In this document: one piece after another, positions 2,152 to 23,114 of the stretch
How the letters are laid out: each line of letters opens with the position of its first letter
How positions within the stretch are numbered: the stretch's first letter is position 1
Assembly (NCBI RefSeq): GCF_048631835.1
Contig: NZ_CP184640.1
Coordinates: forward strand, 3,205,461-3,229,460
Source: Psychrobacter sp. ER1
Lineage (GTDB): Bacteria; Pseudomonadota; Gammaproteobacteria; Pseudomonadales; Moraxellaceae
DNA: 24,000 nucleotides
Direction: 5' to 3'
Notes under the pieces: generated by a model
Database searches by the model: none
What the model saw: only the letters and a program-made list of their open reading frames with translations
Told to the model about the DNA's origin: nothing
Program-made: the position numbers and the translations under genes

Positions 2152-3383
2152 ATGTCTACCTCGTCCAATCTATCTGCTTCATCTAGCCTGCCATCCTCGC
2201 GCTTTACCTTTTGGTTGGTGCTGTGTGCCATGGTTCTGCTAGCCACCAATATGCGTGCGCCTATCGTCGCACTAGGTTCTATCGCCCCAGTGGTAAAAGA
2301 CGCGCTTGATATCTCTGAGTTTCAGATAGGCTGGCTAGGGGCAGTACCTATGCTGAGCTTTGCCGTTGGTGCGCTGATTTCCCCAACCATTGGCAAGCGA
2401 TTCGGACTAGAAAACACACTGATTGCTATGATTGGGCTATTGACGGTAGGAATGGTTATCCGTACTGCTATCCCGACGTGGAGTGGGTTTTTAATTGGTA
2501 CTTTGCTACTTACCCTCGCCATCGGCTTCGCTAATACTTTAGCAGCACCGGTCATTAAACAACGTACCCCTCAACATATTCCGCTAATTACAGGGTTGTT
2601 CAGTTTAACGATGACCACAGCAGCAGGTATCGTTGCAGGCGTCGTATTACCGTTATCTGCGCAAGTAGGTTGGCAGTGGGCATTAGGCGGTTGGACAATA
2701 CTGGGTGTTTTTGCTTTCGTGATTTGGTTGTTCTTACGTGTGCGGTTGGGTTCATCCAACCATCAAGCAGTTATCCCTGCGGCGTTAGGTTCTTCTGATA
2801 TCTCTATGTGGCGAACCACATTTGCGTGGCAAATTGCGATTTTTATGGGATTGCAGTCATTATTGTTTTACACCGTTGCCAGTTTTTTACCATCGATTTG
2901 GGTCAGTAAGGGACTATCTGCCGTCAGTGCTGGACAAATGGGTTCTGTATTTCAGTTTATGGCACCGGTTTCTATCTTAAGTTTAACTTGGTTGGTCAAT
3001 CGTGGCCGCCCTATTCAAGCGCTAGCGGTGTTCGCCGCTGTGCTAAATGTCATTGGTATATTGGGCGTCAGTTATCTATCGACTGACTTGGCATGGCTAT
3101 GGTCAGGTATGATGGGCATGGGCTGTTCGGCGATTTTCACCTTGAGCATGATGCTGTTCTCTATGCGCACCTATACGACCAATCAGGCAAGTGAGCTGTC
3201 TGGTATGGCTCAAGCAGTTGGTTATATCATTGCGTTTTTGGCCCATTGGGCACAGGCTGGCTCCATGAAACAACGGGCAGTTGGAGTATGCCGCTTTTTA
3301 TTATGTTGATACTGATGATTGTCAACGTCGTGATTGCTTGGCTTGTTAGTCGTCCAGTGATGGTCGATGGCAAATATATTTGA
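2152..3383 (+). pseudogene. MFS transporter (CynX/YeaN-like), C-terminus frameshifted at a T5 run
   Basis: The 385-aa ORF is multi-TM and hydrophobic throughout. Adding one T at 3235..3239 restores FFGPLGTGWLHETTGSWSMPLFIMLILMIVNVVIAWLVSRPVMVDGKYI, ending at 3383. This is a typical CynX-family C-terminus. Confidence 0.72.
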
Positions 3384-5297: not shown

Positions 5298-7925
5298 ATG
5301 AATAGTAAGCCCACAGACAACAAATCGACTGATACAGAAAAAACTGATACCAGTATGCATCAAGAGTCCAGTTATCCCAGCGGCATCCTTAGTCAACTAT
5401 TTACCCGTACCCTAGGCTCGCAAGCACTCAGCCGTAGCTGGTGGCAGCGCTGGGTATATCCTGTGTTGTTTCTACTGACTTTGACCTTGTCGCTTGCAAC
5501 CTACCTGACCCTCGACTCTGTGCAGCAGTCTGTCGATAGCTACATCAATGACAATCAGCGCGCGCTCGTTGGTGGGGATCTAATCCTAAACAGTAAACAA
5601 GACTGGCCAAGCGAAGTATTGTCACAGGTAGAAACTCTCCCTAATACACAGACCGTGTATGACTATCAGTTTAGCGCCATGCTGGTCAACGATGAGCAAA
5701 CCTTGCTTGCCAGCGTTAAAGCCGTCTCGCCCTCGTATCCCCTATACGGCACAGCGGAGCTTGCTTCCAGGACAGCCACTGTGGAATCAGCTAACATCTG
5801 ACAGTGTGATCGTCGCGCCAGAAGTACTCAGTAGTCTACAGGCCGATATCGGCGACCGTATCACCATTGGCGATGCGCAGTTTACGATCAGTGATGTACT
5901 GACCAAAAAGCCTGACCGTCCGCTGACTACCTTTGGTTTTGGTGGGCGTGTGTTAATGAAACAAGATGCACTTCCGTCAACCAACCTATTGGGTCAACGT
6001 AGCCGCATAAACTATCGTATCGAGATGGCAGGCGACCCAGAGCTAATAACCACGCAGCGTGAGCAGCTTACAGATATCCTGACCAATTATTCTGATATCG
6101 AGCTCTCTGATGCAGAGTCCGCAGACACTTCTGTCTCGCGTATCTCTGATAATGTGCTGATGTTCTTAAAGCTACTGGTCATCGCGGTGTTGCTACTATC
6201 TGCGGTCGCTATGTATGGCGTCATTAGTGCGTTTGTTAGCAAGCAGCAGTCCAATAATGCCATTCGCTTGGCGCTAGGCGAACCGCTTGGCTCACTCAAA
6301 CGTAGCTACTATCAATTGCTCATCGTAACGACCGTCATCGCTTGTATCGCAGCGATTGCCCTTAGTCTGGGCTTGCTCAAAATCGGCCAGCCATATCTGG
6401 TGGCTATCTTGCCTGCCGATGTGGGTCTAGCCATCAATCCAATCAGTGCTATTAAAACCATTGTGATTGCCTTAGCTCTGACACTACTGATTGCACAGCG
6501 TGGTTTAAGCGCACTTAACACGACCAAACCCGCTACCTTACTCAATCAAGGAGCGAGCACGCAGACACAAAATTTGCCTTGGTATCGACGCGTGCCGCTA
6601 CTGTGGTATGGCTTGGTGCTGGCAGGGTTGTATGCTTTCTTTGCTTATGAAGTTGGCTCACTGTCATTAGGCGCACAGTTATTGGGCGGCTTGATTGGCT
6701 TTGTGGCGATATTTTGGTTATTGGCGCGTGGGTGGCTCTGGTTGCTTAACAAGTTAGCAAGCAATACTAAGGTCAGTTGGATGCAGCGTATCGCCATCCA
6801 TAACCTTGCGCGTAAAGGCAACCAATCAGCGTTGTTCTTTGTCACCTTATCACTATCGGTAGCGGTGCTGACGCTCATTACCACGCTCAATCACAGTATC
6901 AATGCGCAGTTTATCAATGCCTATCCTGAAGACGCGCCTAATCTGTTTTTGCTCGACGTGCAGAGCGATCAACATGACGATATTGATGCAATCATTGGAG
7001 CGCCTGTCACTTATTATCCCGTCATTCGTGCGCGTGTGGAGACAGCAAATGATGTGGCGGCAAAAGATATCGAGCCTGCTGATGGGTTTGATGATCCCAC
7101 GCGTGTCTTTAACTTGAGCTATGCCGATACGGTCATGGAGACCGAATACATCACTGAATCGCTCACAGACGACGCGCTATACACCCCTATCGATGCGACA
7201 AATGAGCAAATCAAACCATTGTCTATCTTGGACACTGCTGCCAGTATGCTCAATGTCGGTATGGGTGATCAGGTACGTTTTAACATTCAAGGTATCGAAA
7301 TCATCGGGCAAATTACCAGTATTCGCACGCGCTATGAGCGTGGCCCAAGTCCGTATTTTTATTTCTTGTTTGAACCGTCTGTCCTATCCGCTGCCCCGCA
7401 GATTCAGTTTGCCACTGCCCACGTATCAGAAGACGCCATTCCAGAACTACAAGGCAAACTGGTACGCGAGTTCCTGCTGTCACTACGATTGATGGGACGG
7501 CTATTGCGAAACAAATTCAAGAGCTGGTGGTACAAATGAGCCGCTTGGTCTATGTGTTTACCTTGCTTGCCCTACTCACTGGCGTCATGGTGCTGATCAG
7601 CTCGCTGTTGTCTACTTCGCAAGATCGTATGAAAGACAGCGCGTCATTTAGACTGCTCGGTATGCAAAAGCGCGATCTGTATATGCTCAATATCCTAGAG
7701 CTGGGTGTGCTTGGTCTTAGCGCGGCGACGTTTGCGGTGGTCATCGCCAGCGTTGGCGCATGGGCAGCAATCACGCAATGGTTTAATCTACAATTTAGTG
7801 TGCCGTGGACGAGCTTGGCTATTGGCGGTGCGGCATTAGTTGTATTACTGTTTGCCATTGCCATTATTTATGTGAGATTGGTGATTGGACGCGGGATTAT
7901 GGCTAGGGTTAGGGCGATGATTTAG
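5298..7925 (+). pseudogene. FtsX-family ABC permease (YbbP-like), split into three ORFs by two frameshifts
   Basis: ORFs 5298..5801, 5659..7539 and 7527..7925 read as one continuous protein if the frame is shifted near 5765..5772 (YPLYGTAELAS/GQPLWNQL) and at 7473..7474 (VREFPAVTTIDGTAIAKQIQELVVQMSRL). It has multi-TM FtsX-like halves. Confidence 0.8.
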
Positions 7926-8271
7926 AGGTTATATTTGAAGACTTAGCAGAGATTAATGAAAGGTTAGTTTTTACAGCTAATCCTGCTTCAGATCGATAAG
8001 CTATAAGATGATATAGTTGAATGTGATTTAACGTTTTGAAAACAATTTCAAAATTAGAAAAATCGACTTTACTTCTATTAGGCTCTATTACTCTCTCTAA
8101 AAACTCTTTTTTACCATAAAATTTTGTTTGATCGGTTTTTTTATTAGAAGGATTAAATATTCGCTGATCAACTTTGGTTTGAAGTACATTTGAATCATAT
8201 AGCTTTTCTACATCAACATCTTTATCCAGCTGCAGAATATAAAGGTTATTGTAAACGTGATAAAACAACAT
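7909..8271 (-). CDS. Hypothetical protein, last gene of the retron islet
   Basis: An uninterrupted 120-codon ORF in visibly AT-rich DNA. It is co-oriented with the Toprim ORF and starts 20 nt after that ORF's stop, with an AGGGA-like RBS. I recognise no domain. The 3' end overlaps the ybbP-like stop by a few codons. Confidence 0.45.
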   Translation of the reverse strand: MLFYHVYNNLYILQLDKDVDVEKLYDSNVLQTKVDQRIFNPSNKKTDQTKFYGKKEFLERVIEPNRSKVDFSNFEIVFKTLNHIQLYHLIAYRSEAGLAVKTNLSLISAKSSNITSKSSP

Positions 8272-8291
8272 TATCCCTACTGTCGGAATAT

Positions 8292-8842
8292 TTATTTTTT
8301 AATAGTTTTATCGAATAATTTCTCAGCCATTTTGATGACATCGTTACCTGCTTTATCACCATCTAGAAGAATAATGCAAGGGAACTTGCTGATAGCTATT
8401 GATTTATCTATAAGCTGATATTCACTTAGAAATTTGTTTATCAGACCTGTTCCACCTTTCATACCAGTGAAATGCGAAAAACGTTTAGTATTACCTAAGT
8501 AGGTAAACTTTATACTGGTATTATGAGCATTATAGATAACTTTGTAAGCAATTCTCAAATGACGAGGGTCAGTAAAACCTTCACCTATCACTATTGTTCT
8601 GTATGGATAAATAAAATTGTAATGGAATAAAAATTTCGTATATAATTTTTGAAGACCTTTCATATCGCAATATTTAATATGGCCGTCATCTACCACCAGG
8701 TTTCTATCACGTTTAATATAATAAATAAAACTAAGTATTCCATTCAATGAGTTATCATTCGCTATGTTAACTCTCCTATGCTCAGAAGATTTGAAATACA
8801 TACCTGTCATACAATATTGATTTACCATAGACCTAGTATATC
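8292..8842 (-). pseudogene. Toprim-domain C-terminal portion of an interrupted RT-Toprim protein (or a separate Toprim effector)
   Basis: IVIGEGFTDPRHL (Toprim Glu motif) and ILLDGDKAGNDV (DxD motif). The first ~30 codons of the annotated 213-aa ORF are IS-derived. The native sequence starts immediately at the IS left end. Confidence 0.6.
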
Positions 8843-9749
8843 TATAGTCAGTCCAAAATAGAAAAGGTACAATGCTTTTAAACCAAGCAAAGAGAAATAT
8901 AAAAGATGACCTACTCAGCAGATTTTCGAGCACAAGTTATCAAAAACATTGAGCAAAAGACATGAGCATCCGTCAGGCCTGTATTTTTTATAATATCAGC
9001 AAGAGTACACTACAGCGCTGGCTTATAGACCCAAGCATCCAAACGACCAGAGTCAAAACGCCAAGCAGTATACCCAATGAAGCTCTTCTACAAGACGTTA
9101 ATCAATACCCAGATGACTATCTATATGAGCGAGCTCGTCGTTTAAACTGTAGTAAATCAGGTATTGGCTATGCCTTAAAAAGATTAAATATCAGCCAAAA
9201 AAAGACCTTAGCACATCCAAAAGCGTGTTCAATAAAAAGAGCGGTATATAAGAATAAGCTTGATCATTTTAAGCAGCAAGGCTATCCCGTTGTCTATATG
9301 GATGAGAGTGGCTTTGAGGCTGAAACTATTCGTCCTTATGGCTACGCACCGATAGGTAAACCTTGTATTGATAGCTATAATTGGCAAGCTAAAAAACGTA
9401 CCAATGTCATCGGTGCTCTGTATGAAAAGATGCTTTTTGCGCTTGATTACTTTGAGAAAAACATCAATGGCGATATATTCTATGACTGGTGCAAATATAC
9501 GCTCATTCCAAGCCTTAAAACTAAATGCGTAATCGTCATGGATAATGCCAGCTTTCATAAACGAGTGAAAAGTCTTCTGAATAGGCATGGTCACAGGCTT
9601 TTATTTCTACCATCCTATAGTCCTGACTTAAATCCTATTGAAAAGAAATGGGCACAAGCTAAGTTTCTACGACAAGGTTGGATGGAGAATAATCTACCTA
9701 AACTATTTCATAATATGGGTTGTACTTCTTTTATTTTGGATTGACTATA
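8843..9749 (+). mobile_element. IS630-family insertion sequence (about 0.9 kb)
   Basis: The terminal inverted repeats tatagtcagtccaaaatagaaaaggtac (8843..8870) and the reverse complement of 9722..9749 match at 24 of 28 positions. TA dinucleotides sit at both ends, consistent with TA target duplication. It encodes a DDE transposase. Confidence 0.8.
8906..9744 (+). pseudogene. IS630-family DDE transposase, N-terminal frameshift in an A4 run
   Basis: MTYSADFRAQVIKNIEQK joins MSIRQACIFYNISKSTLQRW (HTH) if one A is added at 8955..8958. The catalytic triad context is VVYMDESGF, VIVMDNASFH and SPDLNPIEKKW. Confidence 0.8.
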
Positions 9750-10631
9750 GTATTCTTTTCTTATATTTACTTTTTTGTTTACGGATAAAGAAGTTACTTC
9801 TTGTCTTTCATTATTAGTATAAAGACGTGTTTTAGACTTATTTACTTCAAATCCTGAGGATTTAATAATTTTTTCTAATTGAAGACCTACAATCCAACGA
9901 TCTTGTCGATGTACAGCAATTTGATATGGGAAGTCTTTGAGATTCGTAGAAAGTGTAATGTCATCCGCATATCTCGTATAATCAAGCTGATACTTTTTAG
10001 CTAAACGTAGAATCCTAATATCAAGGATACTGCTTATTAGATTACTAATAATAGGTGATAAAGGACTTCCTTGTGGTAGATATCCTTTCGTATTACCTGA
10101 CTCTCTGTAAGTTGCAATTTGAGCTATAGTAACTGCAACGTCCACGTCTAAAAGAAAGTCATTATTTTTGACGAAGTAACCTACAATACGGGGAAAATCT
10201 ATACTTTTGAAAAAATCTTTAATATCTAAATTAAATACGTACTTCTTATTTGTATGATTTTTTGCATTGCTGTAGATATCAAAACTAAACTTATTTAAAT
10301 AATGCTCATTATCTATTGTGCGTCTAAAGCCATGAGAAGAAAAACTTAAAATTGAGACAGGTTTCGTTAACTTTGATATTCTGTTGCACTCTATTTCTTC
10401 GTAACAATTACTTAAGAGCGTTGCAAGTTTTTGTTGTAACCGCTTTAAATCAGTTTTAGGAGCTAATATATCTCTGCTTCCTCCTGTCTTCTTCGGGATA
10501 GTAAAGCTATGATATTTATTTTGTGGGCTTTGGGCATAGATTATTGCTGTAAATTGCTTAAGGGAATAGCCTAAAATAGTAGCTAAATCTTTTCTATCAT
10601 TACATTTCTTTAGTGCTATTAAACTGCTCAT
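9750..10631 (-). pseudogene. Retron-type reverse transcriptase, truncated after motif 7 by the IS630 insertion
   Basis: NAKNH (the retron NAxxH region) is followed by LDIKDFFKSI. Also present are LPQGSPLSPIISNL, YADDITLS (YxDD, residues 221..224), SKTRLY and RQEVTSLSVN (VTG-like). The last 12 codons of the ORF are read from IS sequence. Confidence 0.85.
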
Positions 10632-10654
10632 GTTTTACATCATCTTGTTTGGTT

Positions 10655-10858
10655 CCTTCTGGGAACTCATGTGGTCACAGTACAAATAACATTAATACCA
10701 GTCGAACCCTCCAAAGCCTTATAGGACTCAGACAGAAGTTCTTACATTGTCAGAACAGGTTGCGATACGCATCCCAAGGATCTTCCCAGAAGGGAATAGT
10801 CAGGTTATATCAAACTTGTTGTTTATTCAAGATTATAGTTAAAAAGACAACATGAGTT
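10655..10858 (-). ncRNA. Candidate retron msr/msd non-coding RNA region
   Basis: It lies immediately upstream of the RT start (10631) on the same strand. A perfect 11-nt inverted repeat links 10783..10793 and 10655..10665, with a G at 10782 directly 3' of the upstream arm. An alternative 9(+3)-nt pair is 10846..10858 with 10664..10676. There are several short hairpins and a ~40-nt imperfect hairpin. The boundaries are uncertain. Confidence 0.45.
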
Positions 10859-10922
10859 ACGTATTGACTTTATGCTCTATGAGAACTTGACAAATTTGAA
10901 CCATCCTACGTCAAACCAAAAC

Positions 10923-10951
10923 GCCCTCTATTCATCTAGAGGGCTTTTTTT
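10923..10951 (+). terminator. Rho-independent terminator, probably the original ybbP-like operon terminator displaced by the islet
   Basis: gccctcta (10923..10930) pairs with tagagggc (10937..10944), followed by T7. No plus-strand gene ends nearby except the permease, about 3 kb upstream. Confidence 0.6.
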
Positions 10952-11090
10952 GGTTCATAAGCTGTATAGACATTTAAACCAACATCAGCCACGCACTTTG
11001 CTTATTTTATAGCCCTCATTTGCTATACTAGCCCAACTTTATCGGTTAAATACCAACTTATAACACTTTCCCAAACAGCATGGTAGCCTT

Positions 11091-12422
11091 ATGAAATTCT
11101 CAAAGTTCGGTCAAAAATTTACCCAGCCCACTGGCATCTCACAATTGATGGATGATCTGGGCGATGCGCTAAAAAGCGATCAGCCAGTCAACATGCTGGG
11201 CGGTGGTAACCCTGCCAAAATTGATGCCGTTAATGAGTTGTTCTTGGAGACCTATAAGGCGCTGGGTGTTGATAATGATGCAGGCGTGCCCAATAGTAGC
11301 GCGATTATCAGCATGGCGAACTACTCTAATCCGCAAGGGGATGCCGCTTTTATCGACGCCTTAGTTGGCTTCTTTAACCGTCATTATGATTGGAACCTCA
11401 CCTCAGAAAACATCGCTCTGACCAATGGCTCACAGAATGCGTTTTTCTATCTATTTAATCTGTTTGGTGGTGCTTTCGTTGATGAAAACAGTCAAGATGA
11501 AAAGAACCAATCTATCGACAAGTCCATTCTACTGCCATTGACCCCTGAGTATATTGGCTATAGCGATGTGCATGTGGAAGGTCAGCATTTCACCGCGGTA
11601 TTACCGCATATCGATGAAGTGACGCATGATGGCGAGGAAGGTTTCTTTAAATATCGTGTGGATTTTGACGCATTAGAGAACTTGCCAGCCCTAAAAGAAG
11701 GTCGTATCAGGGCGATTTGCTGCTCACGCCCGACCAGCCCGACTGGCAACGTGTTGACTGATGACGAAATGGCGCATTTGGCTGAGATTGCCAAACGCTA
11801 TGACATTCCCCTTATCATCGATAACGCCTACGGCATGCCCTTCCCCAATATCATCTACTCTGACGCGCATCTGAATTGGGATAACAATACGATTCTCTGC
11901 TTTAGTCTATCGAAAATTGGTTTGCCCGGTATGCGTACTGGTATTATCGTGGCCGATGCAAAAGTAATCGAAGCGGTTAGCGCAATGAATGCCGTGGTCA
12001 ATCTAGCACCGACACGCTTTGGTGCAGCGATTGCTACGCCATTGGTAGAAAACGATCGTATCAAGCAATTATCTGATAACGACATCAAGCCGTTTTATCA
12101 AAAGCAGGCCACCCTTGCTGTGAAGCTATTAAAAGAAGCCTTGGGCAATTATCCGTTGGTCATTCATAAGCCTGAGGGCGCGATATTCTTATGGTTATGG
12201 TTCAAAGACTTGCCGATTAGCACGCTGGATCTATACGAGCGCCTAAAAGAAAAAGGCACGCTTATTGTACCAAGTGAGTACTTCTTCCCTGGCGTCGATG
12301 TTAGCGATTATCAGCATGCGCACGAGTGTATCCGCATGAGTATCGCCGCTGATGAGCAGACACTGACTGATGGTATCAAAGCCATTGGTGAAGTGGTACG
12401 TGAGCTTTATGATGAGAGATAG
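11091..12422 (+). CDS. avtA: Valine--pyruvate aminotransferase (class I/II PLP aminotransferase)
   Basis: The N-terminus MKFSKFGQKFTQPTGISQLMDDLG is AvtA-like. It has the PLP-lysine context FSLSKIGLPGMRTG, and the size of 443 aa fits. Confidence 0.78.
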   Translation: MKFSKFGQKFTQPTGISQLMDDLGDALKSDQPVNMLGGGNPAKIDAVNELFLETYKALGVDNDAGVPNSSAIISMANYSNPQGDAAFIDALVGFFNRHYDWNLTSENIALTNGSQNAFFYLFNLFGGAFVDENSQDEKNQSIDKSILLPLTPEYIGYSDVHVEGQHFTAVLPHIDEVTHDGEEGFFKYRVDFDALENLPALKEGRIRAICCSRPTSPTGNVLTDDEMAHLAEIAKRYDIPLIIDNAYGMPFPNIIYSDAHLNWDNNTILCFSLSKIGLPGMRTGIIVADAKVIEAVSAMNAVVNLAPTRFGAAIATPLVENDRIKQLSDNDIKPFYQKQATLAVKLLKEALGNYPLVIHKPEGAIFLWLWFKDLPISTLDLYERLKEKGTLIVPSEYFFPGVDVSDYQHAHECIRMSIAADEQTLTDGIKAIGEVVRELYDER

Positions 12423-13967: not shown

Positions 13968-14630
13968 TAAAAGCCTCTTTGGTCGATGGCAAGGTATTCA
14001 ACGCACGCTCATCATATTCACAAGCCATACGTAATGCACGAGCAAAGGCTTTAAAGGTGGATTCGATCTGATGATGGCTGTTTTTGCCTTTTAGGTTGTC
14101 CAAGTGCACCGTCATCCATGAGTGATTGACAAACCCGTAAAGAACTCACTGAACAAATCAACATCGAAACGGCCCACATGCGAGCGCGTAAAAGGGATAT
14201 CCATGTGCAGTCCAGGACGACCTGATAGATCGACGACTGCACGAGTCAATGCTTCATCGAGCGGCGCATAAAAATGCCCGTAACGACGGATGCCTTTTTT
14301 GTCGCCCAATGCTTTGTTGAATGCTTGACCAAGCGTAATACCAGTATCTTCGACGCTATGGTGGTCGTCGATAAAGGTATCGCCGTTGCATTTGATGTCC
14401 AAATCAAACAAACCGTGACGCTTGATTTGATCAATCATATGATCCAAAAATGGTACACCAGTGTCTACCGTGCCTTTACCTGTACCATCCAGATTAACGG
14501 TACAGGTGATTTGCGTTTCGGCAGTGATACGCTCAACAGTCGCGATACGTTCAGGGCGACCATATAGATTTACGTTTTTTGACTCAGTTTGCTCAGATGT
14601 GGCAGCAGTCGTCGTTGCATTGGCTGTCAT
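13960..14630 (-). pseudogene. hisB: Imidazoleglycerol-phosphate dehydratase, frameshifted near the C-terminus
   Basis: The 172-aa ORF carries HisB motifs ([25 protein letters not shown]). One extra base in the run at 14131..14133 restores [38 protein letters not shown]... The stop at 13960..13962 overlaps the hisH start. Confidence 0.88.
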
Positions 14631-15563: not shown

Positions 15564-15639
15564 GGCTCGATAGCTCAGTAGGTAGAGCAACGGATTGAAA
15601 ATCCGTGTGTCGGCAGTTCGATCCTGCCTCGAGCCACCA
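15564..15639 (+). tRNA. tRNA-Phe (anticodon GAA)
   Basis: A 76-nt cloverleaf: acceptor ggctcga/tcgagcc, anticodon stem-loop acgga-ttGAAaa-tccgt, T-arm gcagttcgatcctgc and an encoded CCA. It is very similar to E. coli tRNA-Phe. Confidence 0.95.
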
Positions 15640-17684: not shown

Positions 17685-18133
17685 TTACGCTTTATTGCGA
17701 TAGCTCAGCGCCTCAGATACGTGGGCGCTGTTGATATCGGTACTATTAGCCAAATCCGCGATTGTACGAGCCACCCGTAATACTCGGTGGTAGCCACGCG
17801 CGGACAAATTCAAACGCTGCTGAGCAAGTTGCAATAACTGCTTTTCATTGTCGCCTAGTTGGATATACTCATCGATTTCGCTAGGGCTAAGCTCATTATT
17901 AACCTTTTGCTGGCGCTGCATTTGATGCTGATGCGCGACTACTACCCGAGACCGTACTTGCTTGGAGGTTTCACCTACTTGACTATTTTGCAAATCGGCA
18001 ATCGGTAATGCAGGCACGGTAATATGTAAGTCAATACGATCTAAGAGAGGACCAGATAACTTATCTTGATAGCGTTTGATCTGCTCAGGTCGACAGCGGC
18101 AGCGACCTGAAGTATCACCATCATAACCACACG
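17685..18133 (-). pseudogene. comM: 3' fragment of comM/yifB (Mg-chelatase-like AAA+ protein), truncated by the Tn7-like insertion
   Basis: CGYDGDTSGRCRCRPEQIKRYQDKLSGPLLDRIDLHITVP... matches the ComM/YifB C-terminal region. Similarity ends at (P)CGY, exactly where TGTAATAA begins at 18134. Upstream codons of the ORF are transposon-end sequence. Confidence 0.8.
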
Positions 18134-18227
18134 TGTAATAATCCCAAATTACTGGCACAATACCCTTCAATATCACCTCTTTTCTATTCCAATACTTACC
18201 AATTAAATGGCAAAGATATACCAAATA
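18134..18227 (+). repeat. Tn7-like transposon end with four direct TnsB-site-like repeats
   Basis: The end starts 5'-TGT. The cores are cccaaatta (18143..18151), cttcaatat (18165..18173), taccaatta (18197..18205) and taccaaata (18219..18227), spaced 22, 32 and 22 bp. The 16-nt contexts have the form yAATAnnnnnCAAwTw. Confidence 0.55.
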
Positions 18228-18247
18228 GCTGTCATAAAATTTAATAA

Positions 18248-18916
18248 ATGCTAAATAAGCGACAAATTATTATGAGACAAATGCGCAAAATAAAACCGAC
18301 TAGAATGAGCGTATCAGGAAGAATTCCATATAAAGGTAAATCATTACCTTATGAATCAACTTTAGAGCGCGATTTAATTATAGTCTATGCCTTTCGAGAA
18401 GATGTGGAGGATATAGTTGCTCAACCAATTACTGTACCCTTCGTCAAGAATGGCGTTACTTATAAGTATACCCCTGACTTTTTTATCAAGTTTGTAGAAG
18501 ATGCTGGTAAGCCAAATATGATTATTGAGGTTAAACCACATGATCTATGGCAAGCGAACTGGAGAGACTGGTCGGATAAGTGGAAGACGATGCAGCGCTA
18601 TTGCAAAGACAATGGTCATGTATTTCATATTTATGATGAGAGTCGTATTAAGAATACAGCTTTAGACAATATCAATCTCTTAATGAAATTTAAGAACTCT
18701 GCAATCGAACAAGAGGATAAGGAAGCGGTTTTAGAGCAGGTTAGGCTTATGGGTACAACTACCATAGATTACCTATTAACCCGTTTTTACATAGGCTCTT
18801 TCTTGCACAATCACGGATTACGAGTAATTTATCATTTACTTGCTACTAAACGATTAAAATTTAATTTATTCCTTAAAATTAACGACTTAACAGAGGTATG
18901 GGTGGATTATGAATAA
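18248..18916 (+). CDS. tnsA: Tn7-like transposase endonuclease subunit TnsA
   Basis: A restriction-endonuclease-like E/D/K pattern: YESTLERDLI, YTPDFFIKF and MIIEVKP. It sits directly inside the transposon end and overlaps the tnsB start by 8 nt. Confidence 0.8.
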   Translation: MLNKRQIIMRQMRKIKPTRMSVSGRIPYKGKSLPYESTLERDLIIVYAFREDVEDIVAQPITVPFVKNGVTYKYTPDFFIKFVEDAGKPNMIIEVKPHDLWQANWRDWSDKWKTMQRYCKDNGHVFHIYDESRIKNTALDNINLLMKFKNSAIEQEDKEAVLEQVRLMGTTTIDYLLTRFYIGSFLHNHGLRVIYHLLATKRLKFNLFLKINDLTEVWVDYE

Positions 18917-21054
18917 TAGTAGTAGTGTAGAAACTGATTCATCTATCTTTGACAGGCATTTAGATGATTTTCAAAAATTAGGTATTGATATAGATACAAT
19001 AGATGAGTCAGTACCAACAACGAAAGGATATGGTTTCATGATTGACCATGATGATGAGGGTTTAGATAGGTTTGAAATCAGGCGCGGACGTATTGATTTG
19101 CGTAAAGGAAAAACCTATCTAAATAAGTCTGATAATAGACATTATGAGCTAGTCGAGTACCTAAACGAGAGTACAGAGGTCGTAGTTCGTAGTGTTGAAA
19201 CGGGTAAAACCAGTATTGTTAATATACAAAGTTTGTCAAACATTAAAGATCAGAATAATGATCATATCAATGTCGATATTAGTGCTATTGGCGATGAAGA
19301 GTGGCAAAAAGCACAGTCAAAGTTTGAGGCAATCAAACCTATTATCAATACTGAGCATAGCTATAATCATCGAAAATTAATCATGGAACGCTCAAAGGAG
19401 ATCAATGTCTCAATTCGTTCATTATATCGTTGGATCAAGCAATATCAGACTGTTGGCTCTATTGCAGGACTGGTAGAGAAAAAACGAGGTTGGAAGGAAG
19501 GTGGATCGCGTCTAACTAAAGTTCAGGACGATGTTATTCAAAGAGCCATAAAAGCATTTTATTTGACCAAGCAAAGGGCTAGTTTAGAGCAGACTTATCG
19601 CGAAGTTTTTCGCATTTGCTCCATGGAAAAGATCGACAAACCAAGTAAAAAAGCTATCAAATTACGTATTGATCAAATTTCAGAGTATGAACAGCTTAAA
19701 AAGCGTGGCCAAATAGAGCAAGCTAGAAAAAATTCAAACCCACACCCCATTCCTTTCCTAACGCAGATTATCCATTAAGCGTGATTCAAATAGACCATAC
19801 ACCTGTTGATTTAATGCTAGTCGATAACGAACACCGAAAATCTATTGGTAGACCATATTTAACACTAGCTATCGATGTCTATAGCCGAATGATTACGGGA
19901 TATTACTTATCATTAGATCCACCATCAGCGACCTCAGTTGCAATGTGTGTCGCAAGAAGTATCTTACAAAAAGAGAGTCTTTACTTGAACATGGTATTGA
20001 TCATACAGAATGGCAAGTGTATGGCTATCCTCAAAAGATACACGTTGATAATGGTGCTGACTTTCGATCAAACACCTTGGCTCGTTCGTGCGAAATTCAT
20101 GGGATTAACCTTGAATTTAGACCAGTAGCAAGACCTCAGTTTGGTGGACATATTGAACGTCTCATTGGTACGTTTATGAAAGAGGTTCATGGCATCAACG
20201 GTACAACATTTTCTAATATTAAGGAAAAAGACAATTATGACTCTGAAAAAGAAGCGACACTTACCTTGGATGAGTTTGAGGTTTGGCTTCTTACCTTTAT
20301 AACCAAGGTTTATCACAAGCGAATCCATAGCACTTTAGGGCGAAGTCCTACGGAACAATGGTATCTAGGTATTCATGGTGATGGTGAAAGCATTGGTACA
20401 GGCTTACCATCATTACCAGAAGACTCAAAAACCTTACTATTAGACTTCATGCCAAGTTTTGAGCGAACCATCCAGCATTTTGGCGTGACTATAGACTCCT
20501 TACGCTATTACGACCCCTGCTTAAATATTTTTATTAACGCCAAAATAAAGATGGAAGTAAGAAACACTTCTTATTCAGACGTGATCCAAGAGACATTAGT
20601 AAAATTTGGTTCTACGATCCAAGTTTACACCAGTACTTTACAGTCCCCTTTGCTAACCAGCAGCTACCAAGTATGAGTCTGTGGGAATATAAACAGATTC
20701 GTAAGCAGATTTCTGATAAAGGGAATGAGTATATAAATGAACATCAAATTTATGAAGCTTTAACCGAGATGCGAGACTTAATCGAAGATTCTTCTAAAAA
20801 AACGAAGTCTGCTCGTAGACAAGCGCAACGTCAAAAGACACATGCAAAAGTCAAACTATCGTAGCCAAAACAATAATGGCGAGTAAAAGAAACAATGCCA
20901 ATACTAGCAGCGATCTAGAACCGACTAACAGTGATGATATTCAAACAAATTTACAGCCATCAATACAAGCTTCTAAAAACCTGAAAAGAGTGTCGTTGAA
21001 CAAAATGGTCTACTTCTAGATACGACTGATTTTGATTTTGGAGATATTGAATAA
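18909..21054 (+). pseudogene. tnsB: Tn7-like DDE transposase TnsB, about 715 aa once roughly five homopolymer frameshifts are repaired
   Basis: DDE context: VIQIDHTPVD, KIHVDNGADFRS and GGHIERL. The fragments join when one A is added at 19727..19732, 19968..19972, 20542..20545, 20853..20855 and 20984..20987. The C-terminus is ...LLLDTTDFDFGDIE, and the stop overlaps the tnsC ATG. Confidence 0.85.
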
Positions 21055-21952
21055 TGAATGAAATTATCACTGATAACAAAACGTCTTACCTCCATGTATA
21101 TAAAGATTTCCGTCATCTTGTAGAATATTCTGATGACGATCGATTAGATTTTATTAACGAAGCTCGCTGGGTCAATTATGAGGTAGCAGACAATATAATT
21201 TTAGAGCTAAACGGGCTTTTGAGGTTCCCAAAAGACTAAGAATGCCTAACCTTTTAATAGTCGGTGATTCAAATAACGGCAAAACCAGTATTGCTCATCG
21301 TTTTTTAGAAAACATGGCATGCCAATCGAAGAGAATGGCATTTTAGTCAAGCCTGTTATTTTTGCAAATGCTCCTTCAAGCACTAATGAAAAAGACCTCT
21401 ATATGTCCATTCTAGAGGCACTTCATATGCCCTATAGAACGAAAGATTCAGCATCTTCATTGCTCTATCAAGTACTTCATTTATGCCGCGAGTATCAAGT
21501 CAAAATGATCATGGTTGATGAGCTTCATTCATTACTTACAGGTACACCAAGACAGCAACGTCAGGTAATGAATGCTTTGAAGACATTATGCAATGAATTA
21601 CAGATACCGATTTGTCGGTATTGGAACGCAGGATGCGAAACGTGTACTACACACTGATCCTCAGCACGCTAGTCGATTCGATATTGTAGAAGTCCCTCTT
21701 TGGAAATTAGATAAAAGATTTCAAGAATTACTTTTTCGACTCGAAAGTGTTTTTCCGCTTAAGAATCCATCAGAATTGCATCAACCCAAAACTGCTGCCC
21801 TTATTCATGCCGTTTCAAAAGGAAATTTAGGCAATATTCATAGGCTTCTGTCAGTTTGCGCCAAAGATGCCATTCTTAGTGGCACAGAACAAATTACCGA
21901 AGACATTCTGACTAAAAATAAAGATGTTCGCTCAACCGAAGGACTCAGGTAA
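21054..21952 (+). pseudogene. tnsC: AAA+ transposition regulator TnsC/TniB-like, about 300 aa with three frameshifts
   Basis: Walker A PNLLIVGDSNNGKTS, Walker B MIMVDELHSLL and the TniB-like LKTLCNELQIPxVGIGTQDA. The shifts are at 21230..21233, 21309..21312 and about 21611..21613. Confidence 0.8.
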
Positions 21953-23114
21953 TGGTTAGCGTAAAACCATTACCTGTTGCTACGCCTCTTTTAGATGATG
22001 AAAGCATAAGCTCATGGTTACTACGGGTATCTTTAAATCAAGGCTGCGACCTTTCTACAATTCTTTTTTATCACTGGTCTAAATACAATTTGCGTCATCA
22101 TGATTTTGATAAAGGCTTTAATCATATTAATAAGCAAATACATCAAGATATGGCTGTACTTGCTCAAACTGATACTAAATTTTTTGATAATAGAAGCTTG
22201 ATACAGTTCAATGAAGATATTGGATTAGAGTATCGACCAAATATTAGCCTTACTTGGGTGTTACCTATTCCCAAATTTCATTCTAAAACGATGGTAGGCC
22301 ATCAATATTGCGCTCAATGTATGCAAGAGGACAAAAGTGCGTATTTGAGATTAAAGTGGCGATTTAGTTGGATTGTTTACTGTGAACAGCACTTAATTTC
22401 ACTACAAAGTTCGTGTTCTAGCTACGGATTGCCGTATCAACCACATTTGATCAAAGCGAATCACCGATTTATCAATAGATGTCCTCATTGTCGAGAAAAG
22501 CTAAGCGCTGAAGCAGTAAATCAACTTTTATGTACAGATGCTTATGAGTTTCAATTGAAGGCTGAACAAGTATTGAGCGCTAATCAAGCAATAGTTTTTG
22601 GACATTCAATAACCTCTGGTGACTGGTTTGAGCTGACATTATTTTTCATCAACCTCATAAGGAAGAGTACTTTAGAAAAAGAATTAATCTATAAAAATTT
22701 AGTAGAAACCCTTGGTATATGTGGTATCGATGGTCTTAGGCTAAGCAAAACTAGAACGGGGCTAAAGTTTGATTACTTATCCTACGAGGAAAGAGTAATG
22801 CTTATCGCCTACACCAACCAGATGCTCAAAATCAAATTTGATGACTGGCTATTAGCTTGTAAGAAAAATAATTTAACGCAAAATAGCTTTAGGCTGGGTA
22901 AGCGACCCATCATACCAAAAGCCTTTTACCTATCTACAATGAGCTTCCTTCAGCTGTAAAGCGTCAAATTAAAGCAAACAGGATATCTGCTAAACCTAAG
23001 TCAGCAAGGGCGGTTAATAATTCTTGGGAAAGAATGCAATTACGAATTGAGAAGTTGAAAATATATGATAAATCAAAACCCAACAAGAGAGCTAGAAGAG
23101 CAACTAAGTCATAG
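21952..23114 (+). pseudogene. tniQ: TniQ/TnsD-family target-selection protein, C-terminal frameshift
   Basis: N-terminal TniQ signature PLLDDESISSWLLRVSLNQG and zinc-ribbon-like YCAQC...YCEQH...CPHC. A shift near 22924..22930 extends the ORF (IYNELPSAVKRQIK...) to a stop at 23112..23114. Confidence 0.72.

Follow-up and report, generated by a model that had tools for sequence, protein, structure and literature searches.

The retron locus and its divided gene

We analyzed a 24,000-nucleotide stretch of the chromosome of Psychrobacter sp. ER1 (contig NZ_CP184640.1, positions 3,205,461 to 3,229,460; hereafter called the window), in which an AT-rich islet at positions 7926..10834 carries a broken retron. 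The original prediction had described the islet as a reverse transcriptase (RT)-Toprim retron of the Ec67/Retron-Eco2 type (type I-C) that is interrupted by an insertion sequence (IS) of the IS630 family and accompanied by an unexplained small gene, and had considered it a candidate variant antiphage system. Base composition bears out the islet, as its native sequence has a GC content of 31% compared to 44 to 49% in the flanks. The native features of the islet are all on the minus strand; their neighbors are an aminotransferase gene upstream, in divergent orientation, and a MacB/FtsX permease gene downstream, in convergent orientation. They consist of an msr-msd noncoding RNA (ncRNA; 10654..10801) and an RT-Toprim gene whose open reading frame (ORF), as sequenced, is in three pieces. 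The IS occupies positions 8843..9749 on the plus strand.

The 5' part of the RT-Toprim gene (9750..10631, minus strand) encodes residues 1 to 294 and the first bases of codon 295, covering the RT fingers and palm, and matches Pfam RVT_1 (E = 1.9e-19). It is read as part of a 307-amino-acid (aa) ORF (10631..9708) that contains NAKNH at residues 122 to 126, YADD at residues 221 to 224, and VTS at residues 279 to 281, as had been claimed, and that leaves native sequence 14 residues after VTS, at the IS terminus. Residues Y221, D223, and D224 of YADD were invariant in our alignment of RT-Toprim proteins (alignment A1), as were N122, A123, and H126 of the region X motif NAxxH, which is located between RT2 and RT3 (PMC7736814). 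On the other side of the IS, the same strand continues with the middle part of the gene (8292..8846), which encodes residues 296 to 478 and then reaches a stop at 8292. This part comprises the thumb/linker and the Toprim core, with motif IV (GEGFTD; E383 and D387) and motif V (DGD in DGDKAG; D456 and D458). The two motifs conform to EGxxD and DxD, the pattern of types I-C1 and I-C3, whereas type I-C2 has DxE (PMC7736814). The C-terminal segment (7909..8271, minus strand) appears in the sequence as a 120-aa ORF. It corresponds to residues 487 to 606 of the rebuilt protein, includes D506, E508, and a YGKK motif, and could be aligned to approximately residues 489 to 581 of Eco2 and to intact orthologues.

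Within region Y, the glycine of the VTG triplet of retrons has been called the residue with the highest conservation (PMC7736814). In the window, this position reads V-T-S (residue 281 at approximately 9789..9791), the valine and threonine being invariant in the alignment. Serine replaced the glycine in all aligned Psychrobacter orthologues, including the intact ones (P0001, P0002, P0003, P0005, and P0008), whereas VTG is kept in the aligned Acinetobacter relative (P0029) and in Eco2.

When the IS and a one-base deletion (both described below) were repaired in silico, the three pieces formed a single 606-aa ORF that was collinear with orthologues of 601 to 614 aa, also across both joins. The closest of these orthologues are single ORFs of 614 aa (P0001; 93% identical over 100% of the query) and 601 aa (P0002; 92% identical), with coverage of 99 to 100%. 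NCBI names the latter [quoted passage not shown] A search for IS-free orthologous loci found them at the same chromosomal site, with the same aminotransferase and MacB/FtsX permease neighbors, in four Psychrobacter loci (L001, L002, L003, and L004, the last from Psychrobacter sp. B38). The intact orthologues consist of an msr-msd ncRNA and a single protein of approximately 600 aa, and all homologues are fused proteins of roughly 570 to 620 aa. A stand-alone Toprim gene, which would have spoken against the predicted architecture, was not present in the IS-free homologues.

Family models place the rebuilt protein in the Ec67 group. It scored 520.2 bits against NF038237 (retron_Ec67_fus; NCBIfam), for which the cutoff is 450, and covered positions 3 to 568 of the 572 positions of the model. 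It also matched the PADLOC profile RT-Toprim_I-C over its full length (E = 1.7e-168), and Eco2 itself has the same two best PADLOC profiles, PDLC02966 and PDLC02963. Rebuilt residues 2 to 576 aligned with residues 5 to 582 of the Eco2 structures 9LM3 and 9I2F (E of about 3e-81), so the suggested relationship to Ec67 holds from end to end. Type I-C loci have one protein gene downstream of the ncRNA, and the type makes up about 11% of retrons (PMC12916289). With a probability of roughly 0.93, we read the region as one copy of a type I-C retron (Ec67/Retron-Eco2 family, I-C1-like) that has been broken by an IS and that has the canonical single-gene layout. The retron belongs to a known, structurally solved, and routinely annotated family, with neither a new architecture nor an extra component.

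The frameshift site, the 120-aa ORF, and the IS630-family insertion

The Toprim frame is additionally broken, as sequenced, by the loss of one nucleotide from an A7 run. The site is a run of six A's on the coding strand (8295..8300, minus strand) where orthologues have seven bases, namely, A7 in L001 and AGAAAAA in L002. The Toprim ORF of the window ends with ACT ATT AAA AAA TAA, while L001 has ATTAAAAAAATAAAT (A7) and L002 has ATTAGAAAAATAAAT. Adding one A to the run yields the 606-aa protein, in which the sequence across the join, KTIKKINIPTVGIMLFYHVYNN, lines up collinearly with KTIKKINIPKVGIILFYHVYNN of the orthologues. In the restored tail, E508 and D506 align with E515 and S513 of Eco2, both of which have been assigned to metal B (PMC12405507), and are followed by the YGKK motif, which is invariant among the aligned orthologues. 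The mapping of tail residues was anchored only on E515 (E508 here) and on the invariant YGKK. The catalytic lysine given as K562 for Eco2 was left aside, since counting residues along the PDB chain puts a D at position 562.

The missing A is probably a sequencing or assembly artifact of the homopolymer rather than a real mutation. When L001 proteins were compared with the window, six frame switches were seen in 5 of the 11 matching genes: an MFS transporter gene, the MacB/FtsX permease gene (twice), hisB (IGPD), a 140-aa gene, and the retron. These one-base switches relative to intact L001 orthologues are located near positions 3235, 5768, 7472, 14100 to 14196, and 15104 and at 8295..8300, or roughly one per 2 kb. 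The tnsB and tniB genes of a Tn7-like module also look split, and a HAD-type phosphatase gene was judged split from the ORF list alone. Compared with L103, a near-identical metagenome copy of 901 bp, the IS has five substitutions and two 1-nucleotide (nt) deletions but no other insertions or deletions (indels). Both deletions shorten A runs, from A5 to A4 near 8954 and from A8 to A7 near 9196. Taken together, the frame switches and the deletions in the A runs of the IS suggest systematic undercalling of homopolymers, and the frame switches across the window suggest either an error-prone assembly or a decaying genome. Because there are many one-base frame switches, ORF calls in this window need caution.

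It is less likely, and in our judgment rather doubtful, that the copy is a doubly inactivated pseudogene in which the poly(A) frameshift is a genuine second mutation, maybe selected since the IS freed a toxic Toprim fragment that lacks the RT. Several observations would fit such a history. Truncations of the Eco2 Toprim part starting from N267, S300, and N337 are toxic to Escherichia coli, whereas the full-length protein is not (PMC12405507), and the IS splits the window protein at the equivalent of Eco2 residue ~272. From the IS end, an ORF at 8933..8292 runs on into the Toprim frame, and the frameshift removes E508, the counterpart of the Eco2 metal B ligand E515, together with everything after it. 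However, similar one-base frameshifts occur in unrelated genes (hisB, the transporter gene, the 140-aa gene, and, twice, the permease gene), the Tn7-like genes look split as well, and two further deletions in A runs set the IS apart from copies that are otherwise nearly identical. Such a pattern speaks for systematic homopolymer error, not for selection at one site. The more specific proposal, in which a real frameshift was selected after the IS insertion and disarmed a toxic, uncaged Toprim RNase fragment expressed from the IS end (ORF 8933..8292), seems quite improbable to us. If it were true, the locus would document, in nature, how the effector of a single-protein retron was first uncaged and then detoxified.

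Whatever the origin of the missing A, the 120-aa ORF (8271..7909, minus strand) is best understood through the same site. The original prediction had presented it as an unexplained gene with no recognizable domain. As sequenced, the ORF is real: it has its own ATG 20 nt after the stop of the Toprim ORF, and a Pfam search of the ORF found no domain, both of which would suit a variant retron with a separate 120-aa protein as an additional component beside RT-Toprim. This is very unlikely and is already refuted by the orthologue alignment. The ORF aligns with the last ~85 positions of both family models, matching positions 463 to 549 of 568 in the PADLOC RT-Toprim_I-C profile (E = 1.4e-19) and positions 481 to 568 of 572 in NF038237 (E = 4e-15), and the 478-aa piece that precedes it covers positions 6 to 457 of the PADLOC profile. 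The segment is contiguous with Toprim in every intact orthologue and in the Eco2 structure, and its separation is due to one A missing from a homopolymer. In none of the homologous loci is there a separate gene at this place; the convergent permease gene comes next. The ORF is the C-terminal fifth of the same RT-Toprim protein and part of the nuclease, not an extra component. With it goes the notion of a variant antiphage system, given that the layout is the canonical single-gene layout of type I-C.

The IS630-family element (8843..9749, plus strand) has an 899-bp core (8847..9745) with TATA on either side (8843..8846 and 9746..9749). Its transposase coding region (8906..9744, plus strand) consists of an N-terminal piece (8906..8965) and a 260-aa ORF (8962..9744), with matches to DDE_3 (E = 1e-29) and HTH_Tnp_IS630 (E = 5e-13). 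The terminal inverted repeats are 31 nt long (8842-8872 and 9720-9750) and 87% complementary. The DDE_3 transposase, the IS630-type helix-turn-helix, the terminal inverted repeats, and the TA-containing target all resemble the IS630 family, from which the element departs in being short (~900 bp) and in being flanked by a TATA repeat that is single at the empty site. IS630-family elements classically duplicate TA. A megablast search of the IS against plasmids gave one partial match only (82% identity; Psychrobacter urativorans), which did not define the ends, and these were defined by a pattern scan of metagenomes. The same left IS end was found in 22 metagenome contigs (L084 to L105), which represent independent copies; TATA precedes it in 21 of these and CATA in the remaining one, and three full metagenome copies of 901 bp have TATA on both sides. 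Either the IS duplicates 4 bp or an additional TA belongs to its terminus, which would be out of the ordinary for a family that is generally characterized by a 2-bp TA duplication. In the intact 901-bp copies, which are from marine metagenomes (L098, L099, and L103), orfA and orfB overlap at the A8 run, which is likely a programmed frameshift site. In the window copy, the A missing from this run fuses the orfA and orfB frames, and the A missing near 8954 cuts off the first 20 codons.

The element was inserted into codon 295 at a TATA, where the palm meets the thumb, and separates the RT from the Toprim. The empty site in both L001 and L002 reads GAATAC-TATA-GATATAC, and the window reads GAATAC-TATA-(899 bp)-TATA-GATATAC, a net gain of 903 bp. 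Since a target-site repeat is present, the insertion cannot be a sequencing artifact; it is a genuine transposition event that disrupted one fused gene rather than two separate genes. Two in-silico deletions had been suggested for rebuilding the gene. Removal of 8847..9749 (903 bp) restores the frame and yields a continuous 478-aa ORF, in which the junction peptide NIRKEYYRYTRSMVNQYC is identical to that of the orthologues; the proposed junction, IRKEYY followed by RYTRSMVNQY, is exactly what the intact orthologues encode. The other deletion, 8845..9749 (905 bp), gives KEY followed by a stop and is ruled out by the empty sites with their 903-bp net insertion.

It is accordingly hard to credit that the RT and Toprim were natively separate genes, such that removing the IS (903 bp) together with a TA duplication (905 bp) would leave KEY-stop and a stand-alone Toprim: the classical TA duplication of the family and the CTAG site recreated by the 905-bp deletion are in its favor, but the L001 and L002 empty sites read GAATACTATAGATATAC, which means a 903-bp net insertion in a continuous frame and already refutes it, the homologues are all fused (~570 to 620 aa), and other copies of the IS have TATA on both sides.

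The msr-msd RNA and the weighing of the retron assignment

The ncRNA (10654..10801, minus strand) lies upstream of the RT start on the same strand. To describe it, we used a covariance model (R1) that was built from the window locus and six related loci and that contains two helices, the a1/a2 stem and an msr stem-loop. The a1 arm (CCUUCUGGGAA; 10783..10793) pairs with the a2 arm (UUCCCAGAAGG; 10655..10665) in the minimum free energy (MFE) fold, and the a2 arm is also found by RNAalifold and covariation. The resulting inverted repeat encloses approximately 125 nt. A single short msr stem-loop (UGGGAUGCGUAUCGCAACCUG; 10756..10776) forms helix 2 and is likewise indicated by covariation. A candidate branching guanosine (10782), assigned by its position, immediately follows a1 within the motif A-G-A-U-C. 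G10782 is at least 90% conserved across 41 aligned ncRNAs. In Eco2, the branching rG15 is followed by rA16 (PMC12405507), and G10782 may be the branching guanosine by analogy with the position of rG15.

Model R1 found a full-length match directly upstream of the RT-Toprim gene, on the same strand and shortly before its start, in 40 of the 46 loci searched, including distant loci with 31 to 39% protein identity. In the R1 alignment, which was fitted to the model and whose pairing statistics should be read with this in mind, 97% of cells were paired, compared to 27 to 46% with slid partners, and compensatory double changes were present at 15 of the 19 pairs. Helix 1 had changes on both sides at 10 of its 11 pairs with 99.3% of cells paired (40 distinct sequences), and helix 2 had compensatory changes at 5 of 8 pairs with 93% of cells paired. 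RNAalifold recovered the a1/a2 stem and one msr stem-loop, again with compensatory changes. The ncRNAs of the Psychrobacter orthologues are nearly identical to that of the window. When Psychrobacter and Acinetobacter loci were compared, conservation was seen in the msr-proximal half and at the a2-proximal end, with variation in the middle of msd. A second hairpin in the single-sequence fold (GUUCU...AGAAC; 10757..10739) was missing from the consensus fold of Psychrobacter and Acinetobacter and was left out of the model. A conserved TATAAC (10809..10804) just upstream of a1 is a visual candidate only; a scan for consensus promoters gave 14 matches versus 14.3 in shuffled sequence, with none before the ncRNA.

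An RT from a nonretron lineage (group II intron, Abi, or UG/DRT) has a negligible chance of being correct and is already refuted, since its weak matches to a group II intron RT model (59 bits) and to Drt2 (32 bits) are far under the respective cutoffs of 300 and 390, whereas retron_Ec67_fus is above its own (520 versus 450), the top PADLOC matches are all retron RTs, and a retron ncRNA with a1/a2 covariation lies upstream.

No observation contradicts our assignment to the Ec67/Eco2 family, but some points limit it. A search of Rfam (E of at most 1 over 7500..11500) matched no family, and for this reason the ncRNA was established by comparison with related loci. The VTS triplet replaces the canonical retron VTG; because a whole clade of intact Psychrobacter orthologues has VTS, it is most readily taken as a trait of the lineage and not as damage. 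Finally, msDNA (the branched product of the RT) synthesis, the phage trigger, and RNA cleavage would be carried over from a homologue with approximately 35 to 40% identity.

Relation to known systems, surroundings, and meaning of the locus

The closest characterized system is Retron-Eco2/Ec67 (type I-C1) of E. coli (PDB 9LM3, 9I2F, 9I2G, and 9S1F). Both have an ncRNA directly upstream of one RT-Toprim fusion gene, and YADD, NAxxH, the EGxxD and DxD Toprim motifs, and the metal B glutamate are conserved in the window protein. The two ncRNAs have in common an a1/a2 stem, a G immediately following a1, and one short msr stem-loop. In contrast to Eco2, to which it is only ~35 to 40% identical, the window protein has VTS instead of VTG, the msd segment is of a different sequence, and the copy is broken by the IS and, as sequenced, by the frameshift. 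The window retron also occupies a conserved Psychrobacter chromosomal site, with no prophage context in the flanks examined. The Ec67-family orthologues of Psychrobacter (P0002 from P. submarinus, P0001, and P0005 from Psychrobacter sp. B38) have 79 to 93% protein identity and the same flanks; unlike the window copy, they are intact ORFs of 598 to 614 aa, free of the IS, with the poly(A) site in frame. Type I-B retrons (e.g., Eco8) and stand-alone OLD-family nucleases share the Toprim/OLD-type two-metal nuclease effector (PMC12405507), but their Toprim is on a separate ATPase-Toprim protein, whereas the Toprim of the window retron is fused to the RT, without an ATPase.

Our analysis establishes anatomy and family membership, and the mechanism outlined here is that of Eco2 (PMC12916289 and PMC12405507). 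By analogy, the N-terminal RT of an intact copy would prime on the 2'-OH of the branching G and copy msd into branched msDNA, and the C-terminal OLD-like Toprim nuclease would be the effector. Three RT-Toprim protomers would be tied together by their msDNAs, with the Toprim sites caged. Degradation of the msDNA by the phage nuclease DenB (A1 has also been implicated) would then free the Toprim, which would cleave tRNA/RNA, leading to a stop in translation and abortive infection. In the window, the system cannot work: the cut falls at the beginning of the RT thumb and leaves the effector apart from the RT. The system is inactive here, and the copy, as sequenced, is a pseudogene.

The retron and its upstream intergenic region (7755..11200) have 92 to 93% DNA identity to L001. 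The blastn segment of L001 that continues through the permease gene is only ~81% identical, and the products of the flanking genes have 78 to 91% protein identity. At this shared site, the contrast hints at either a more recent exchange of the cassette or its stronger conservation. The retron gene and the permease gene converge and share 17 nt at their 3' ends in the window (7909..7925), compared with 29 nt in L001. The last ~25 residues of RT-Toprim (SEAGLAVKTNLSLISAKSS...) are present only in the closest orthologues and are encoded antisense to the C terminus of the permease. Between the divergent aminotransferase gene and the retron, a perfect 8-bp GC-rich hairpin with T runs on both strands (10923..10944) resembles a bidirectional terminator, although no upstream gene there needs termination. 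The hairpin is conserved in L001 and partly conserved in L002.

Farther along the window (17685..22959), a Tn7-like transposition module directly adjoins a 3' fragment of comM (17685..18224, minus strand), a gene of the Mg-chelatase family. The module lies on the plus strand and encodes TnsA (18248..18916), a TnsB-like transposase divided among three ORFs (18909..20676), TniB/TnsC in two pieces (21319..21952), and TniQ (21952..22959). The arrangement looks like a Tn7-like element inserted into comM. AbaR islands in Acinetobacter are inserted in comM. A tRNA-Phe (GAA) gene (15564..15639) is located about 2.6 kb from the Tn7-like element, between a conserved block of his genes and a region of lower GC content.

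For discovery, the locus matters little, as the family has already been characterized structurally and mechanistically and the orthologues are already named by the NCBI annotation pipeline. The useful outcome is a negative one: the proposed extra component is a frameshift artifact, and there is no new architecture to chase. Of minor value is that the window is rich in one-base indels, which calls for caution in reading it at the level of ORFs. Of similarly minor value for the biology of the family, the family-wide ncRNA model places an msr-msd RNA that lacks an Rfam counterpart upstream of most RT-Toprim genes, and a whole Psychrobacter clade has VTS in place of VTG.

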